Below, in pieces: positions 3,433 through 12,884 of a stretch of 24,000 nucleotides of DNA. The position numbers and the translations under genes were made by a program. The notes beneath the pieces are model-generated. The model searched no databases. It saw only the letters and a list, made by a program, of their open reading frames with translations, and was not told the DNA's origin. Source of the stretch: Falsibacillus albus (GTDB lineage: Bacteria; Bacillota; Bacilli; Bacillales; DSM-25281); NCBI RefSeq assembly GCF_003668575.1, contig NZ_RCVZ01000001.1, positions 501,046-525,045 on the forward strand, read 5' to 3'. The first letter of the stretch is position 1, and every line of letters begins with the position of its first letter.

Positions 3433-3975
3433 GTGTTACTAAAAAAACAAACTGTTTGGCTATTGACAATGTTAAGTCTAGTGGTAGTATTATCGGTTTA
3501 TTATGTCACATCACCAGAAACGAAGACTGCAGATCTTGCCGCTGTTGATAAGGGCAAGAAAACGAGTGAAAGTGCATCAGCATCCAATAAGAAAGACATG
3601 GATGTTGTGACAGATGCTGCAGGCGATGAAGTTTTCGAAGCATTACGTTTAGATGAACAAGATAAACGGAGTGAGCTGCGCCAGCAATTAACGGAAATGG
3701 TCGCTTCACCTGACTTAACAGCAGAGGAGAAAAATAAAGCATACGAACAAATGCAGCAGCTTACTGAATTGGAAACAAAGGAAAAAGTACTTGAAAGTCT
3801 GATCCAATCAATGGGCTATAAAGATGCGCTGGTTCGCGCTGATGGTGAAAAGGTGTTGATCACTGTTAAAGCAAATGAGCAATCCAAAAAAGCAGCAAAT
3901 CAAATCATCCAAAAAGTCGGCGATGAAATAGGAGAAATGCAGAAGGTTTCAGTAACATTCGAACCTGAAAAATAA
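3433..3975 (+). CDS. spoIIIAH: Stage III sporulation protein AH
   Basis: The N-terminus MLLKKQTVWLLTMLSLVVVLSVYYV and the C-terminal VTFEPEK are near-identical to remembered B. subtilis SpoIIIAH. It has a GTG start with an upstream SD. Confidence 0.88.
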   Translation: MLLKKQTVWLLTMLSLVVVLSVYYVTSPETKTADLAAVDKGKKTSESASASNKKDMDVVTDAAGDEVFEALRLDEQDKRSELRQQLTEMVASPDLTAEEKNKAYEQMQQLTELETKEKVLESLIQSMGYKDALVRADGEKVLITVKANEQSKKAANQIIQKVGDEIGEMQKVSVTFEPEK

Positions 3976-3980
3976 TACAA

Positions 3981-4032
3981 AAGGAGTCATTCCATTAGCC
4001 AGCGAGTCTGGCCGGAATGACTCCTTTTTTTA
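3981..4032 (+). terminator. Rho-independent terminator of the spoIIIA operon
   Basis: The arm AAGGAGTCATTCC (3981-3993) pairs with GGAATGACTCCTT (4014-4026) and is followed by a T-run. Confidence 0.8.
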
Positions 4033-4190
4033 AATGGCATATCCTAAAAGATAGTAGTCATCACTTTGGATTCATCCTATCATAACGATTGAAATGGAAA
4101 GTGCGATTCTCCATGATGTATTCGCTTTCAATGGACATCTGACCTCTTTAAAATGTATGATATGTTTAGGTAGGAAAAAGTGGTCTTACC

Positions 4191-4229
4191 AATTCAACGT
4201 TGAATTTTTCATGTAAATTATCGTATGAT
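4191..4229 (+). promoter_or_regulatory. Candidate sigma-A promoter of accBC (TTGAAT-18-TATGAT) with an overlapping perfect 16-bp palindrome
   Basis: The -35 TTGAAT is at 4200-4205 and the -10 TATGAT at 4224-4229. The palindrome AATTCAACGTTGAATT spans 4191-4206. Confidence 0.4.
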
Positions 4230-4269
4230 ATTAGTAGCTAGTCATAATTCAAGTTAGGAGATGTATCAA

Positions 4270-6139: not shown

Positions 6140-6160
6140 TCTTCACTGGAGGTGTTGGAT

Positions 6161-6577
6161 ATGTCAGAAAATCAGATGAATAATGTTTTAGAAATGAATC
6201 AAGGAAACGATGGGCTCGGTAAAGTCGAGATTGCACCTGAAGTCATTGAAGTCATTGCAGGCATTGCTGCATCCGAAGTGGAAGGAGTTGCCCAAATGCG
6301 CGGCAACTTTGCTTCTGGCGTCGTAGAACGCTTAGGCAAAAAAAACCACGGAAAAGGCGTTAAGGTGGAGCTCTCGGAAGAAGGCATAAAAGTTGATGTC
6401 TTCTGCCTTATGAACTTCGGAGTCTCCATCCCGAACGTAGCCCAAGAAATACAGGATAACATTCGCCAGGCATTAATGAATATGACTGCACTGGAAGCGA
6501 ATGAAGTCAATATTCATGTAGTCGGAATTCAATTCGAAAACCAAAAACATGAAATCTATGACGAAACAGAAGAATAA
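6161..6577 (+). CDS. yqhY: Asp23/Gls24 family envelope stress response protein (YqhY-like)
   Basis: GKVEIAPEVIEVIAGIAASEVEGVAQMRG is the typical Asp23-family N-terminus, and the gene has the conserved position after accC. ATG 6161 is preferred because a GGAGG SD lies 8 nt upstream. Confidence 0.85.
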   Translation: MSENQMNNVLEMNQGNDGLGKVEIAPEVIEVIAGIAASEVEGVAQMRGNFASGVVERLGKKNHGKGVKVELSEEGIKVDVFCLMNFGVSIPNVAQEIQDNIRQALMNMTALEANEVNIHVVGIQFENQKHEIYDETEE

Positions 6578-6584
6578 GTGAAAC

Positions 6585-6620
6585 AAAATCCCAAAGGCCA
6601 ATTGGCCTTTGGGATTTTTA
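6585..6620. terminator. Rho-independent terminator after yqhY; perfectly palindromic, with an A-run and a T-run (bidirectional in form)
   Basis: AAAATCCCAAAGGCCA (6585-6600) pairs with TGGCCTTTGGGATTTT (6603-6618). Confidence 0.8.
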
Positions 6621-6685
6621 GTTTGAAGCTGGAGAATATTGGCGATTAGTCGGCATGGGACACGGGTACCCTAAGACATGAAAAA

Positions 6686-8173
6686 TTGATTGATTGTCGG
6701 GTGTTTAATGCTCTTGATATGTCAAGTTTGATTAAAAAGAAAGCAATGGAGCGTGAATGGCTCCTGTTGAGGAAGAGATGGGCTCGTAACGGTAGCAAAA
6801 GAGAGCATCTGATGCCCGTCAGAACCGAAACGGAAGCTGAAGGGAACCAGAATCGAGATCTGATGCCCGCCAGGAACGAAACGGAAGCTAAAGGGAATCA
6901 GAACCGAAATCTGGTGCCCGTCAGGAACGAAATGAAAGCTGAAGGGAACCAGAACCGAAATCTGATGCCCGCCAGAACCAAAACCGAAGCTAAAGGGAAT
7001 CAGAATCGAAATCTGATGCCCGCCAGAACCAAAACCGAAGCTAAAGGGAATCAGAACCGAAATCTGGTGCCCGTCAGAACCGAAACGGAAGCTAAAGGGA
7101 ATCAGAACCGAAATCTGATGCCCGTCAGGAACGAAACGGAAGCTAAAGGGAATCAGAACCGAAATCTGGTGCCCGTCAGGAACGAAACGGAAGCTGAAGG
7201 GAACCAGAATCGAGATCTGATGCCCGCCAGGAACGAAACGGAAGCTAAAGGGAATCAGAACCGAAATCTGGTGCCCGTCAGGAACGAAATGAAAGCTGAA
7301 GGGAACCAGAACCGAAATCTGATGCCCGCCAGAACCAAAACCGAAGCTAAAGGGAATCAGAATCGAAATCTGATGCCCGCCAGAACCAAAACCGAAGCTA
7401 AAGGGAATCAGAACCGAAATCTGGTGCCCGTCAGAACCGAAACGGAAGCTAAAGGGAATCAGAGTCGAAATCTGATGCCCGCCAGAACCAAAACCGAAGC
7501 TAAAGGGAATCAGAACCGAAATCTGGTGCCCGTCAGGAACGAAACGGAAGCTGAAGGGAACCAGAATCGAGATCTGGTGCCCGTCAGAACCGAAACGGAA
7601 GCTAAAGGGAATCAGAACCGAAATCTGATGCCCGTCAGGAACGAAACGGAAGCTAAAGGGAATCAGAACCGAAATCTGGTGCCCGTCAGGAACGAAACGG
7701 AAGCTGAAGGGAACCAGAATCGAGATCTGGTGCCCGTCAGAACCGAAACGGAAGCTAAAGGGAATCAGAACCGAAATCTGATGCCCGTCAGGAACGAAAC
7801 GGAAGCTAAAGGGAATCAGAACCGAAATCTGGTGCCCGTCAGGAACGAAACGGAAGCTGAAGGGAACCAGAATCGAGATCTGGTGCCCGTCAGAACGGAA
7901 ACCGAAGCTAACGGGAATCAGAATCGAAATCTGATGCCCGCCAGAACCAAAACCGAAGCTAAAGGGAATCAGAACCGAAATCTGGTGCCCGTCAGGAACG
8001 AAACGGAAGCTAAAGGGAATCAGAATCGAGATCTGGTGCCCGTCAGAACCGAAACGGAAGCTAAAGGGAATCAGAACCGAAATCTGGTGCCCGTCAGGAA
8101 CGAAACGGAAGCTAAAGGGAATCAGGATGGCATTACGCTTTCCATTGCAGATGGCCTCCTTCTTTTATGTTGA
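6686..8173 (+). CDS. Doubtful ORF: hypothetical repetitive protein (17-aa repeat LxPxRxxxxAxGNQNRN x26), possibly just a by-product of the 51-bp array
   Basis: The frame is open for 495 codons. However, there is no SD before TTG 6686, ATG 6719 or ATG 6746, and no signal peptide or TM segment. Most unit variants are non-synonymous, including K/E swaps. An open frame across a 17-codon unit is expected by chance in several of the six frames. Confidence 0.3.
   Translation: MIDCRVFNALDMSSLIKKKAMEREWLLLRKRWARNGSKREHLMPVRTETEAEGNQNRDLMPARNETEAKGNQNRNLVPVRNEMKAEGNQNRNLMPARTKTEAKGNQNRNLMPARTKTEAKGNQNRNLVPVRTETEAKGNQNRNLMPVRNETEAKGNQNRNLVPVRNETEAEGNQNRDLMPARNETEAKGNQNRNLVPVRNEMKAEGNQNRNLMPARTKTEAKGNQNRNLMPARTKTEAKGNQNRNLVPVRTETEAKGNQSRNLMPARTKTEAKGNQNRNLVPVRNETEAEGNQNRDLVPVRTETEAKGNQNRNLMPVRNETEAKGNQNRNLVPVRNETEAEGNQNRDLVPVRTETEAKGNQNRNLMPVRNETEAKGNQNRNLVPVRNETEAEGNQNRDLVPVRTETEANGNQNRNLMPARTKTEAKGNQNRNLVPVRNETEAKGNQNRDLVPVRTETEAKGNQNRNLVPVRNETEAKGNQDGITLSIADGLLLLC
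6809..8125. repeat. Tandem array of ~26 x 51-bp units, perfectly phased, with 357-bp and 153-bp higher-order repeats
   Basis: Unit starts (CTG) fall at 6809+51n, checked at 6860, 7217, 7574 and 8084. There are four main unit types built from about 12 biallelic positions. Confidence 0.97.
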
Positions 8174-8406
8174 CGATGAGGAGTTACAGCCGACGTACAG
8201 GCGTTGAAAGACCATCCAGGTATTCCCACTTTTCCTCATGCAAATCCTCTAGAAAAAACAGCTGCCTTTATAAAGTGTCCTTACAAATAAAGACTTTTCA
8301 AAAAGTGAGAATAGTTCTTTTATTGAAATATCCGTGCGTTGGTTCCTATGTTTATGCTATTATCTTGTTATGAACTCGAGATTATTCTAAAAGGAGTATT
8401 GAAATA

Positions 8407-8793
8407 ATGAAAAGACGTACTGCGCGTGAAAAGGCGCTTCAAGCATTGTTCCAAATGGATGCGAATGATATCCAGGCGGACGAAGCCATTTCCAATGTAT
8501 TGGAAGATAAACCGAATGACGAATACCTTCAGAAATTGGTGGCAGGGACCATTGAACATAAAAGCGAGATTGATCAAACGATCCAAAAACATTTAGAAAA
8601 ATGGAAACTTGGGCGGCTTGCGAAAGTGGATCGGAATATCCTTAGACTCGGTGTATTTGAAATGTACTATATGGAGGACCTTCCAAAGAATGTTGCCATC
8701 AACGAAGCGATTGAAATAGCGAAAACATTCGGTGATGATCAGTCAAGTAAATTCATCAATGGAGTACTCTCCAAAATAAAGGATTCTTTATAA
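8407..8793 (+). CDS. nusB: Transcription antitermination factor NusB
   Basis: The 128-aa product begins MKRRTAREKALQALFQ, the canonical NusB N-terminus. A GGAG SD lies 10 nt upstream. Confidence 0.95.
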   Translation: MKRRTAREKALQALFQMDANDIQADEAISNVLEDKPNDEYLQKLVAGTIEHKSEIDQTIQKHLEKWKLGRLAKVDRNILRLGVFEMYYMEDLPKNVAINEAIEIAKTFGDDQSSKFINGVLSKIKDSL

Positions 8794-9035
8794 GAGAACG
8801 GGGTCCATTCATAAAGAATTACTGCAGCTTAAGCGTCTAACGACATCGAAGCGGTAGCATGATAGAAGCGTTTAGGGCTGTTCCGCTGGTGCCTGGCTTC
8901 TCCTATAAAGCTCTATATAGTAGAAGTGCGAGCCGATGGCATTCTACTAAATATGGTTTAGGAGTCGCCCGGCACTTTCTTTATGGACAGATCCTTTCTT
9001 TTTCGGGCAAAATTTCTTTATGAAGGGTGTAATAG

Positions 9036-10397
9036 ATGACCGAGAATCGATATTTAACGATAAGAGCATTAACCAAATACATAAAACGAAAATTCGATGC
9101 CGATCCCTATTTGAAAGATGTATATGTGAAAGGGGAAATATCGAATTTTAAACAACATTCCAGCGGGCATATGTACTTTACATTGAAGGATGAAAATGCT
9201 CGCATATTATCCGTCATGTTTTCCTCCGCAAATCGATCAATGAAGTTTTCCCCTGAAAATGGCATGAATGTCCTGGTCAGAGGGGATGTTTCTGTTTTTG
9301 AGTCGAGTGGACAGTATCAGCTATATGTCAAAGAAATGCAGCCCGATGGAATCGGGGAGCTTTTTTTGGCTTACGAACAGCTGAAAGCAAAGCTCGAGAA
9401 GGAAGGCCTTTTTGATGCTGCCAGGAAAAGAAAGCTTCCGATGTATCCGAAAGCGATTGGCGTCATAACTTCTCCTACTGGGGCAGCTGTGCGGGATATC
9501 ATTACCACCATTCAGCGAAGGTATCCGATTGGCAAAGTACTGGTCATCCCTGCACTCGTGCAAGGACAGCAGTCTGCTGCATCCATTGTGGAGGCCATCG
9601 AAAAAGCCAATCAAATGGAAGGACTGGACGTATTGATTGTCGGCAGGGGCGGGGGTTCAATCGAAGAGCTCTGGTCATTTAATGAAGAAGCTGTGGCAAG
9701 GGCGATCTACCAATCAGCCCTTCCCGTCATCTCTGCTGTCGGACACGAAACAGATTTTACAATCGCTGATTTTGTAGCGGATATGAGAGCTCCCACTCCT
9801 ACCGGGGCAGCGGAATTGGCTGTCCCGCACATAGAGGAAATCATTGAACGCGTCATGAATCTGCAAATGAGGCTTGCCAGAGTGATGAGGCAGCAAGTGG
9901 ATGCGCGGAAAAAGGAATTGGACAATCTTCAGCGCAGCTATGCCTTCCGCAATCCTATGAAGCTTTACGAACAAAAGATGGAGGAAGTCGATCGGCTCAC
10001 AGAAAGACTCATCAGGGAAAAGAACATTCTCTTTGCTTCATTTCAGGACCAATTAAAAAACATGGAATCGAGGCTGCAGCGGAGCCATCCATCCGGCAAA
10101 CTTGACCAACATAAAGAAAAATACAAGCATTTGAATAGATGGCTGCAAAAGTACATCCAAGATATATATAAAGAGAAAGTCCAAGCATTGAATCAAAGCA
10201 TTTCCACACTGAAGGCGATGAATCCATTGAATATCATGGAGAGAGGCTACAGCGTTGCCTATAATGAAAAGCAGGAAGTGATCAAATCCACTGCACAGGT
10301 CAGTGAAGGAGACCATATCAGGCTGCACCTGAAGGATGGAAGATTGGTTTGCTCGATTGAAAATATAGAGGAGGAAAGTGAACATGAAAGAAACTGA
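9036..10397 (+). CDS. xseA: Exodeoxyribonuclease VII large subunit
   Basis: The 453-aa product has an N-terminal OB-fold region and the GRGGGS motif. It overlaps xseB, as is typical. Confidence 0.95.
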
Positions 10398-11590: not shown

Positions 11591-11629
11591 TTGAGCGTAT
11601 GAAATAACCTATGGTATAATAAGTATAAT
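11591..11629 (+). promoter_or_regulatory. Candidate sigma-A promoter upstream of the OLE-like RNA (TTGAGC-18-TGgTATAAT, second TATAAT at 11624-11629)
   Basis: The -35 TTGAGC is at 11591-11596. The extended -10 has TG at 11612-11613 and TATAAT at 11615-11620. Confidence 0.4.
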
Positions 11630-12235
11630 GATAGATGGATGGTGCAGTATTCTAGTCGACCTACCATTCTTGAAGGTGGGCCTAAAAATCCACTAAAGGG
11701 CACATCGATGAAGTTCCTGGTTTTGGCTTGGGGAGCCCAGCCTTGGGTCAAAGCTGGGAGTAAAGCTTAAGGGCGATCCACAATGGCATGTGGGCGATGA
11801 CCCTTAAGCTGCGGAGGCTTCGTATCTAGCGCTGGCAATATGCATGTGCAATAGTGCGGAGTATGAACCTGTGATGTGGTCAAAGGGTATCACTAGCAGC
11901 GTAGCCTGCCTTGAGTGAAGTTTGAGGGGATTATGGTAACAAAGCACACATCAGTTGGCCATTGATATGTACTTTTTCGCCCATATGAAATCGGCTTTGC
12001 AAAAGAGGCTAAGGAATGGTTAAAGGTTGTTGAGGAAATCTCCTAGGCTGTTTCTATCTGAACATATTTAGGGGATTATAGTGCGGACTAAGTGGTAATC
12101 CAGTCTAACTGCTGGTGACACAGTTAAGATGCCTTTAAAGGGAAACCGCCGGCTTGGCAACATCCGGTATGCATCTGGGAAAACCTACTGGACCTAAGCC
12201 GCAATCTTAACCCTGCATATGACCATCCATTTTTA
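11630..12235 (+). ncRNA. ole: OLE (ornate, large, extremophilic) RNA candidate; ends approximate
   Basis: This gap of about 750 bp has no ORF of 60 aa or more on either strand. It lies in the diagnostic ispA / ole / oapA / dxs context. A long-range closing helix pairs 11635-11647 (ATGGATGGTGCAG) with 12213-12230 (CTGC..ACCATCCAT). A 10-bp helix pairs 11764-11773 with 11801-11810, and there are many further local helices. The length of about 600 nt matches the published size of about 610 nt. Confidence 0.75.
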
Positions 12236-12257
12236 ATCATATTGACACAAGAAATCG

Positions 12258-12884
12258 GTGATTGATAAATATATGAGAGATATAATGATAAACTCAATAA
12301 AATGGAGTATCAGCATTGCCGTTATCACTTTTGTGTTAGCGGCTATTTTTTCAATAGCATCAAACGGCATCCTTCATGGGGTTGCCTGGGGTACTGGATT
12401 GATTGTCGTTTTGATCATTGTCTTTATCGGTATTTTCTTTGATATGATCGGGATCGCCGCAACGGCAGCAGATGAAGTCCCTTTTCATGCGATGGCCTCA
12501 AAAAAAGTGTATGGAGCGAAGCATTCCATCAACATCGTACGCAATGCCGACCGATTTGCAAGCTTTTGTAATGATGTAATAGGCGATGTTTCGGGTATTA
12601 TAAGTGGTACAGCCACTACAATTGTCATCATCCAGCTCACGGTGAATCTGAAGCTTGGCCAAAGCTCTTATATCGATTATATGATCAATGTTACATTAAC
12701 AAGTTTCATCGCCGCGCTGACCGTTGGCGGGAAAGCCTTTGGAAAATCCTTTGCGATTCGCTATTCTCGTGATATTATTTTTCAGGTCGGGAAAGTTTTA
12801 CAATTTCTTGAGGAAAAATTTCATATCGCTATAATAAAAGATAAAAAGTCGAAAAAGAAATCAACTATTAACAGACGAAAGTGA
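12258..12884 (+). CDS. oapA: OLE-associated membrane protein OapA candidate (small 4-TM protein, basic C-terminal tail); start uncertain (GTG 12258, ATG 12273 or ATG 12285)
   Basis: It lies immediately downstream of the OLE-like RNA and upstream of dxs. It has four hydrophobic segments, two related motifs (FDMIGIAATAAD and NDVIGDVSGIISG, the latter D-x-x-x-D), and a KKSKKKSTINRRK tail. Confidence 0.72.
   Translation: MIDKYMRDIMINSIKWSISIAVITFVLAAIFSIASNGILHGVAWGTGLIVVLIIVFIGIFFDMIGIAATAADEVPFHAMASKKVYGAKHSINIVRNADRFASFCNDVIGDVSGIISGTATTIVIIQLTVNLKLGQSSYIDYMINVTLTSFIAALTVGGKAFGKSFAIRYSRDIIFQVGKVLQFLEEKFHIAIIKDKKSKKKSTINRRK

Follow-up and report, generated by a model that had tools for sequence, protein, structure and literature searches.

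The spacer between an Asp23-family gene (yqhY-like) and nusB in Falsibacillus albus holds a tandem array of 25.9 units of 51 bp. It occupies positions 6807-8125 of the 24-kb window analysed here, the whole stretch of 24,000 nucleotides taken from contig NZ_RCVZ01000001.1, to which all coordinates without a locus label refer. The array is probably a non-coding, hyper-expanded copy of a dispersed, modular family of intergenic repeats of Bacillaceae. This 51-bp family is apparently undescribed, and the F. albus array is its largest copy found in this analysis. With its strictly phased anatomy the array belongs to a family whose copies are dispersed and intergenic, and it lacks coding signals. We infer that it is neutral and most likely has no function of its own; its hairpins could at most perturb local transcription.

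Anatomy of the array

Tandem Repeats Finder delimits the array at 6807-8125 (+ strand), with a period of 51, 25.9 copies, 88% matches, 0% indels and a score of 1971. The consensus over this interval is CTGGTGCCCGTCAGGAACGAAACGGAAGCTAAAGGGAATCAGAACCGAAAT, and the + strand is purine-rich, with an AT skew of about +0.55. The initial annotation had reported an array perfectly phased at 6809+51n and free of indels. Both the repeat finder and a unit table cut at these positions bear this out, with CTG opening all 26 units. The same table reproduces its counts of + frame unit readings (RTETE 7, RNETE 11, RNEMK 2 and RTKTE 6). The unit consensus is GCTAAAGGGAATCAGAACCGAAATCTGATGCCCGTCAGAACCGAAACGGAA. 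Units had also been described as mosaics of about 12 biallelic positions; the mosaic of variable sites is there, but their number is slightly higher, at 15, of which 11 are transitions. Eleven distinct unit sequences occur among the 25 full units. A 34-nt unit probe matches the window 21 times, always within the array (0 matches in shuffles), and an nhmmer unit model finds no further copy in the 24 kb.

The array has a higher-order structure, which is captured by the unit-type string HEFGABDC EFGAIAC BDC BDC JAKB. Units 2-8 recur as units 9-15 (6860-7573, + strand), forming a 7-unit block duplication with a lag of 357 bp and an exact common run of 281 bp. Units 2-5 equal units 9-12 exactly and unit 15 equals unit 8, while unit 13 differs from unit 6 by 2 bases and unit 14 does not equal unit 7. 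Two exact copies of a 3-unit (153-bp) block follow at 7574-7879 (+), where 7574-7726 is identical to 7727-7879 and to 7064-7216; the array thus has three copies of this block, and the exact run is 248 bp long. Unit similarity plotted by lag has maxima at 3 and 7 in F. albus, and at 3 in the longest array of Cytobacillus sp. S13-E01 (locus L008). The block duplications are exactly as first described, and they suggest recent slippage or unequal recombination.

The array contains exact internal repeats of 281, 248 and 158 bp, longer than the usual k-mer sizes, and the genome is a multi-contig draft. The array, or its length and block order, might therefore stem from looping by a short-read assembler. 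It fits this explanation that a second F. albus locus lies at a contig end and that a Logan assembly of Falsibacillus pallidus breaks in a spacer hairpin. An assembly artefact is nevertheless very improbable. The array lies inside a 540-kb contig with unique flanks on both sides, and it contains singleton unit variants (H, I, J and K) and a degenerate edge unit, which are not made by loops. Moreover, the independent Cytobacillus genome has an array of 21.5 units. Doubt is limited to copy number and block order, which rest on the draft assembly, and the copy number needs long-read confirmation because exact internal repeats reach 281 bp.

Relatives in Bacillaceae and metagenomes

The array is not a one-off structure, and homologues with the 51-bp period exist at three Cytobacillus sp. 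S13-E01 loci, in metagenomes and in F. albus itself. The 495-residue ORF that spans the array on the + strand had no match among 5.8 billion proteins at E <= 0.001. A phmmer search of 1.84 billion representatives returned 60 matches, and the inspected ones were unrelated periodic low-complexity proteins except P0174, which has the motif NGNQKGNLMPE and whose contig carries a 4 x 51-bp array. The matches rejected as unrelated, with other periods or motifs, reached down to E 3.6e-29 (P0121, P0124-P0126). A profile built from the F. albus ORF and P0174 recovered 13 ORFs, among which are one partial F. albus protein, three hypothetical Cytobacillus sp. S13-E01 proteins and several ORFs from ENA metagenome contigs.

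At the DNA level, the Cytobacillus arrays comprise 21.5 units (L008 423-1522), 2.5 units (L007) and 1 unit (L009), and one metagenome contains arrays of 4.0 (L006) and 2.6 units (L011). The second F. albus locus is represented by RLQ90600.1 (P0191), a partial hypothetical protein at the end of a 17.9-kb contig that begins NEGNQNRNLVPV. The period is 51 in the window, L006, L008 and L011. The Cytobacillus unit consensus, AAAAACGGTAATCAGAAGAGCAATCTGATGCCCGAAACTCCGAAAAAAATA, shares this period and is identical to the F. albus consensus at 32 of 51 positions, a value that none of 20,000 shuffles reached. A joint HMM of both unit types matches all arrays with E values of about 1e-10 to 1e-15. The GC content is 0.51 for the F. 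albus array and 0.49 for its unit in a window of 0.42, and that of Cytobacillus-type units is 0.37 in genomes of 0.36; unit GC thus tracks the host genome, which argues against recent transfer.

All arrays are intergenic, and their neighbours differ from locus to locus. The upstream gene is co-directional with the array in all five loci where it is seen, usually with its own terminator after it, and the downstream gene converges on the element in three of six loci. Cytobacillus-type arrays have a conserved leader of ~130 bp, and L006 and L008 are 93.5% identical over 512 bp; the copies at L007 and L009 lack the leader. The F. albus array shares with these arrays the 51-bp period, the core GG.AAYCARAA..G.AATCTGRTGCCCG, a hairpin, the orientation to the upstream gene and a 3-unit periodicity. 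It differs from them at 37% of unit positions, and the leader and the bracketing S modules described below are absent at the F. albus locus. Its flanks have no significant similarity to the S modules (GGGCGCCCTGCGCTTTTCTTA) or to the Cytobacillus leader; the search for S-module remnants gave nothing above shuffles.

Several features accompany the Cytobacillus-type copies. Their composite order is S module (TAGTTTTAGTGTCTAGCTCCGGGCGCC..GCGCTTTTCTTA), leader, (51 bp)n and S tail (L011 3864-4206; L008 119-290; L007 6420-6653). The S module is terminator-like, and some S modules contain a hairpin insert of ~110 nt. The S module, and not the array, matches a megaplasmid of Cytobacillus spongiae. 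L011 contains a perfect 22-bp direct repeat, CGGGCGCCCTGCGCTTTTCTTA, and at L007 an S-like module encloses a Bacillaceae-1 RNA (RF01690, 52.6 bits). After the 21.5-unit array, a long open frame, judged by eye, runs from ATGGATAGAAAT at L008 1672 onward. It is not among the called genes, and it may be a pseudogene or a missed gene.

Dispersal of the unit had been named beforehand as a finding that would overturn its novelty, provided that the repeat family was a known and annotated one. The dispersal is real, extending to Cytobacillus, metagenomes and a second F. albus contig, but the family seems not to have been described before. The suspicion that the unit falls outside described families holds for Rfam, Pfam, NCBIfam and the literature searched. 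Rfam gave no match to the array at the gathering threshold or at E <= 10, and none on the Cytobacillus arrays. The literature search yielded no description matching the 51-bp unit, and plasmid and phage collections contained no match for either unit type.

Several resemblances were rejected. A blastn match to the B. cereus plasmid pRML02 (68%, E 1e-3) falls in a (PEPK)n coding repeat of similar GAACCAAAACC composition and is non-homologous. The array is not a CRISPR array, as it has no spacers, the 24-nt 'variable' half of the unit differs at only 10 biallelic sites, and the neighbours are housekeeping genes. An array of 3.9 units of 50 bp (L010 3996-4189, ENA ERZ25039546 contig_92924) was not counted as a member of the family, with nhmmer E values of 0.15-0.46. 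It shares only GGTAATCAGAA...GCCC with the 51-bp family, and may be either a more distant, third unit type or similar by chance. DUF1657 genes lie on one side of it; on the other are an unnamed ORF of 92 residues and, after it, a NERD-domain gene.

Coding potential

Six-frame translation shows two of the six frames to be open across the array, which is about the chance level for a 17-codon unit. The first is a 495-codon frame at 6686-8173 on the + strand, which we judge not to be a gene; it starts with TTG and contains ATGs in frame at about 6719 and at 6746. The second, (ISVLIPFSFRFVPDGHQ)n, runs along the - strand at 6809-8125; it has no ATG, GTG or TTG start, and stops close it upstream. 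Both frames are long because the unit, which happens to lack stops, has a period of 3n. The + frame RTETE/RNETE readings, if taken as a gene product, are most likely a by-product of this period.

A newborn or unannotated gene could nonetheless be envisaged, encoding a beta-solenoid or a disordered surface or spore protein of ~475-495 residues built from 17-residue repeats. The unbroken 1.49-kb ORF is co-directional with the operon, and both unit types have a period divisible by 3. In addition, the distance from an upstream in-frame ATGGAG to the first CTGATGCCC is 63 nt, equal to that in one Cytobacillus-type leader, and at the second F. albus locus the partial ORF was annotated by NCBI in the same frame. 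Such a gene is still quite improbable. Reading of the sequence reveals no Shine-Dalgarno sequence before any candidate start of the + ORF. This ORF scores 0.04 bits per codon where real genes score 0.23-0.33, and its CAI-like score of 0.66 is below those of all 12 window genes (0.73-0.79). Variant sites fall on the three codon positions in the numbers 5, 4 and 6, and the ratio of synonymous to non-synonymous changes, 5:10, matches the random expectation of 38:109, so that the substitutions look neutral.

Comparisons between loci lead to a similar assessment. Two 52-bp units and an in-frame TAA interrupt the frame at three points in the 21-unit Cytobacillus array, and loci with 1-2.5 units have no termini in common. 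The conserved block is identical between unit types at all three codon positions, and the differences between types are distributed as 5, 6 and 9 by position (hand count). From any of its three starts, the + ORF is absent from a set of ~15 billion proteins that holds F. albus NusB and RLQ90600.1. The presence of these other F. albus proteins implies that the NCBI annotation has no CDS here. Pfam, NCBIfam and PDB sequence searches returned nothing meaningful for the array ORFs, and PHROG matches of the array ORF were rejected as sums of sub-threshold repeat matches.

Structure prediction could be read in favour of a gene, as AlphaFold2 gives a beta-solenoid for the + frame in one of five models (pLDDT 85). 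However, the start-less - frame yields the firmer solenoid, in all five models (pLDDT 79-86). The + frame model, the only one compared, has no PDB fold match by Foldseek. Confident AlphaFold2 solenoids for perfect repeats are a documented artefact (PMC11795689). The solenoids obtained from both array frames, modelled with no alignment for 6746-8170 (+) and 6809-8125 (-), are a clean natural example of it. Judged from its sequence, the array is unlikely to be coding.

The hairpin module

Each unit junction carries an imperfect hairpin, GG(G/T)AATCAGA-N7-TCTGATGCCC, which is common to both unit types. Its first instance in F. albus lies at 6842-6868 (either strand), with the arms GGGAAYCAGA and TCTGRTGCCC around a 7-nt loop, and it recurs every 51 bp to the array end. 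On either strand, the predicted folding energy is -8 to -12 kcal/mol. A comparison of the F. albus type with the Cytobacillus type shows identity at 19 of 20 stem positions, 4 of 7 loop positions and 9 of the other 24. In the F. albus array itself, two of 20 stem positions, forming one pair, vary, compared with 13 of 31 other positions (Fisher p = 0.026). When the - strand is read, a U-rich tract comes after the hairpin; it is GUUUUUUAUUUUUUU in Cytobacillus units and UUUAGCUUCCGUUUCGUU in those of F. albus.

These properties raise the question of whether the hairpins are functional modules. On the - strand, hairpin and U-rich tract would form a stack of antisense-facing terminators or insulators between accBC-yqhY and nusB. 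Stem conservation, the folding energies and the terminator-like sites of L008, where a simple scan finds 21 against 2.1 in shuffles, would all fit, as would the convergent and co-directional orientations of the flanking genes. We consider this unlikely. The sole variable stem pair shows no covariation (T-A 7, T-G 11, C-G 3, C-A 4; hand count) and varies as in independent assortment. Cytobacillus units often lack an intact 5' arm (ATCAAA, ATCACA, ACCAAA), and no compensating change is seen. The substitution pattern is also inconsistent, as it favours pairing on the + strand in F. albus and on the - strand in Cytobacillus. The same scan flags no F. albus units, whose - strand tail is only weakly U-rich (~55% U), and no - strand gene in the window needs termination. 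Single and decayed units also exist (L009, L011), and the Rfam search returned nothing, as noted above. The same evidence leaves a similarly small chance for a variant in which the transcribed array is a multivalent platform or sponge for a protein that recognises the core AATCTGATGCCCG.

Recognition could instead take place on DNA, as in an iteron or a centromere such as sopC, with a dimeric protein bound to ATCAGA-N7-TCTGAT in each unit. A palindromic core is indeed present in every unit at fixed spacing and is conserved between unit types. Its symmetry, though, is lost through the variable pair at 15 of 25 junctions, and also in many Cytobacillus units. Moreover, single-unit loci exist, no partner gene is linked and each locus has different neighbours. 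The arrays are chromosomal, among housekeeping genes, and are absent from the plasmid and phage collections. A binding array of this kind is therefore extremely improbable.

Three further resemblances were examined by eye and rejected. A CsrA-type sponge does not fit, as GGA motifs are found in F. albus units and not in Cytobacillus units. A hammerhead-like CUGAUG...GAAA leaves no room for stem II, and Rfam gives nothing. Resemblance to Spo0A, LexA, ParB or Noc sites was in no case convincing.

Proposed insertion into the spacer and expansion of the array

The array fills what is otherwise a short yqhY-nusB spacer, as the initial annotation had supposed. The corresponding spacer measures 195 bp in F. 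pallidus CP158866 (L003 4806-5000) and 288 bp in F. pallidus GCA_003350505. The extra material in F. albus amounts to ~1.7 kb (roughly 6620-8304), made up of the 1.32-kb array and flanks of ~190 and ~180 bp. The two limits assigned to it earlier are also upheld. On the left is the intrinsic terminator of the Asp23 gene (6585-6618), a perfect 17+17 palindrome with 100% complementarity, also seen in the terminator scan; its T-runs on both strands suggest that it could act bidirectionally. On the right, the conserved nusB upstream/promoter region (8305-8373, +), which includes TTTATGCTATTATCTT, marks the end of the inserted material. This region aligns with F. pallidus L003 4888-4956 (77% identity, 69 bp, E 4.5e-14) and is the sole aligning part of the spacer. 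Lying between a terminator and an intact promoter, the array need not affect either gene.

A degenerate edge unit, AACGGTAGCAAAAGAGAGCATCTGATGCCCG, stands at 6788-6818 (+). It agrees with Cytobacillus-type units at 26-28 of 32 positions and with the consensus of the F. albus array at 23 of 32, and is thus nearer to the Cytobacillus type. The non-repeat sequence to its left (the 'leader', 6619-6787, +) has no detectable homologue; similarity to the F. pallidus spacer, the S modules and the right flank is absent. It holds the hairpin GGAGC-GTGAATG-GCTCC (6748-6764) and ATGGAG at 6746, which, from their position, may faintly recall the GGAGT...ACTCC hairpin of Cytobacillus-type leaders. The best inverted match within the left flank is 20 nt long and 70% complementary. 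The right flank (8126-8304, +) likewise has no detectable homologue. The sister species is too diverged to define the boundaries of the F. albus element.

These features can be accommodated in a simple scenario. One or a few modules would have landed after the Asp23/yqhY terminator and before the nusB promoter, and would then have multiplied in place by replication slippage or by unequal homologous exchange between 51-bp units, either of which the hairpin may have favoured. Three or more recent block events can be recognised, among them one 7-unit duplication and two copies of the 3-unit block. Short-block expansion may be a general habit of the family, since the Cytobacillus L008 array is also 3-unit periodic. 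Concerted evolution would have moved the interior units away from an ancestral form that the left-edge unit retains, and the closeness of this edge unit to the Cytobacillus type fits such a process.

Several observations weigh against reading the array as a neutral copy of a dispersed family. The relatives were found by way of a protein search in one frame, which introduces an ascertainment bias for frames and possibly for orientation. Dispersal within F. albus is tentative, the second of its two loci being known solely from a partial protein. The flanks of the F. albus array show no terminal inverted repeats above chance, no recognisable target-site duplication and no linked transposase. Scans with the unit pattern found no array, giving single chance matches in Neorhizobium, Pseudonocardia and one metagenome contig and none in viral contigs; the pattern was of the F. 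albus type, and the F. albus genome itself gave no match, being absent or having this stretch masked. Finally, stem conservation of 95%, set against the 63% of remaining positions that differ, together with the maintained 51-bp period, suggests some constraint.

Comparison with known repeat systems

By analogy, the array would work most like the BOX elements of pneumococci and also like BrickBuilt elements; it is a member of neither, and both are set apart by unit length and host lineage, not by alignment. BOX elements have the structure boxA-(boxB)n-boxC, with ORFs on both strands, lengths that shift by gain or loss of boxB and possible nascent coding sequences (PMC3049150, Croucher et al. 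2011). Like the 51-bp family, they are dispersed, intergenic and modular, with an internal module of ~45-51 bp in variable tandem number, predicted stem-loops, ORFs on both strands annotated as hypothetical, and nesting with small repeats. However, BOX elements have a module of ~45 bp and belong to a different phylum branch, so that sequence similarity is not to be expected, and they measure 67-637 bp, whereas the F. albus array reaches 1.3 kb with 26 modules of 51 bp. BOX elements also possess terminal inverted repeats and target-site duplications, neither of which was found around the F. albus array, and F. albus lacks a conserved tail.

In the BrickBuilt elements of P. gingivalis, which are always intergenic, a 23-nt unit, present 1 to 22.8 times, is enclosed by a leader and a tail (PMC4596501, Klein et al. 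2015). They are described as MITEs (miniature inverted-repeat transposable elements) with an internal minisatellite, present at about 19 loci per genome (PMC4596501). The 51-bp family resembles them in its spacer-free tandem arrays, in copies without leader or tail, in the spurious hypothetical genes that result, and in a unit with a conserved half and a variable half. BrickBuilt differs in its 23-nt unit, its Bacteroidota host, its small terminal inverted repeats and its measured promoter activity, neither of the last two being shown for the 51-bp array. With respect to MITEs, the F. albus locus is non-coding, multi-copy and intergenic, and it lacks terminal inverted repeats.

The array consists of head-to-tail repeats within the 10-100 bp range of a minisatellite or variable number tandem repeat (VNTR), seen in a single F. 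albus genome as far as strain variation is concerned. MIRU-VNTR loci, several per genome, are composed of tandem units of ~50 bp in intergenic operon regions and are oriented with the flanking genes. Their period is likewise compatible with small ORFs, and MIRU arrays are shorter than the F. albus array.

Implications

The 51-bp repeats add an apparently undescribed interspersed, modular, minisatellite-bearing family to Bacillaceae, where such families are far less catalogued than in streptococci, mycobacteria and Porphyromonas. The signature GG.AAYCARAA-N7-TCTGRTGCCCG, combined with the 51-bp period, makes the family searchable. Its recognition is of practical value, as the arrays break short-read assemblies, spawn spurious proteins (RLQ90600.1, PY093_05495, PY093_19545 and PY093_03960), provoke confident but meaningless AlphaFold2 solenoids and might be taken for CRISPR-like arrays. 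Should isolates differ in copy number, the array would serve as a ready typing marker.

There is a slim chance that the module is a working part, its conserved hairpin and neighbouring A/U tract serving as a terminator on the - strand or as a protein-binding site on either strand. Arrays of 20-26 modules would then provide dosage-tunable transcriptional insulators or protein sponges after operon terminators. The slim chance extends to an array that encodes a de novo protein of ~475 residues. Bacillaceae would thereby gain a new class of regulatory repeat, tunable by copy number, or an instance of gene birth.

Neighbouring genes and features

The genes around the array are accB, accC, the Asp23-family gene, nusB and xseA. 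The Asp23-family gene (6152-6577, +; Pfam PF03780, E 3e-37) has its F. pallidus orthologue at L003 4389-4805. Downstream of the array, nusB lies at 8407-8793 (+; Pfam PF01029), and its product is 100% identical to F. albus NusB RLQ98279.1. In both Falsibacillus species nusB is directly followed by xseA (window 8793-9036; L003 5393-5516). We take the B. subtilis order to be nusB-folD-xseA, in which case folD is missing at this position in Falsibacillus.

The right flank of the array carries, on the - strand, a consensus Shine-Dalgarno sequence AAGGAGG (8161-8155), which precedes an ATG by 9 nt. From this ATG a mini-ORF of 7 codons, MESVMPS (8145-8122), runs into the last repeat unit and stops there; this combination is probably due to chance.

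The F. pallidus spacer has a repeat of its own. In GCA_003350505 it contains a 125-bp long-hairpin element (L012 2262-2385; dG -44 kcal/mol), which CP158866 lacks. The element ends GGGCGCTTCCGCTTTTCTTA and corresponds to no Rfam family; homology links its 3' end with that of the S module beside the Cytobacillus arrays. Contig L013 of the Logan assembly of F. pallidus starts inside this hairpin element. As the two F. pallidus genomes differ here, the Asp23-nusB gap appears to be a recurrent, tolerated landing place for intergenic repeats in the genus.

Elsewhere in the region, F. pallidus has a gene for a 491-residue methyl-accepting chemotaxis protein between spoIIIAH and accB (L003 819-2294, -), and no chemotaxis gene is present in the corresponding F. 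albus gap (window 3975-4261). Between ispA and dxs, the F. pallidus gap is only ~160 bp; in F. albus this position is occupied by a full-length OLE (ornate large extremophilic) RNA (11623-12242, +; Rfam RF01071, 504.8 bits), which F. pallidus lacks. The OLE RNA is followed by a 208-residue membrane-like ORF (12258-12884), which, judged by the known ole-oapA synteny, is probably oapA.

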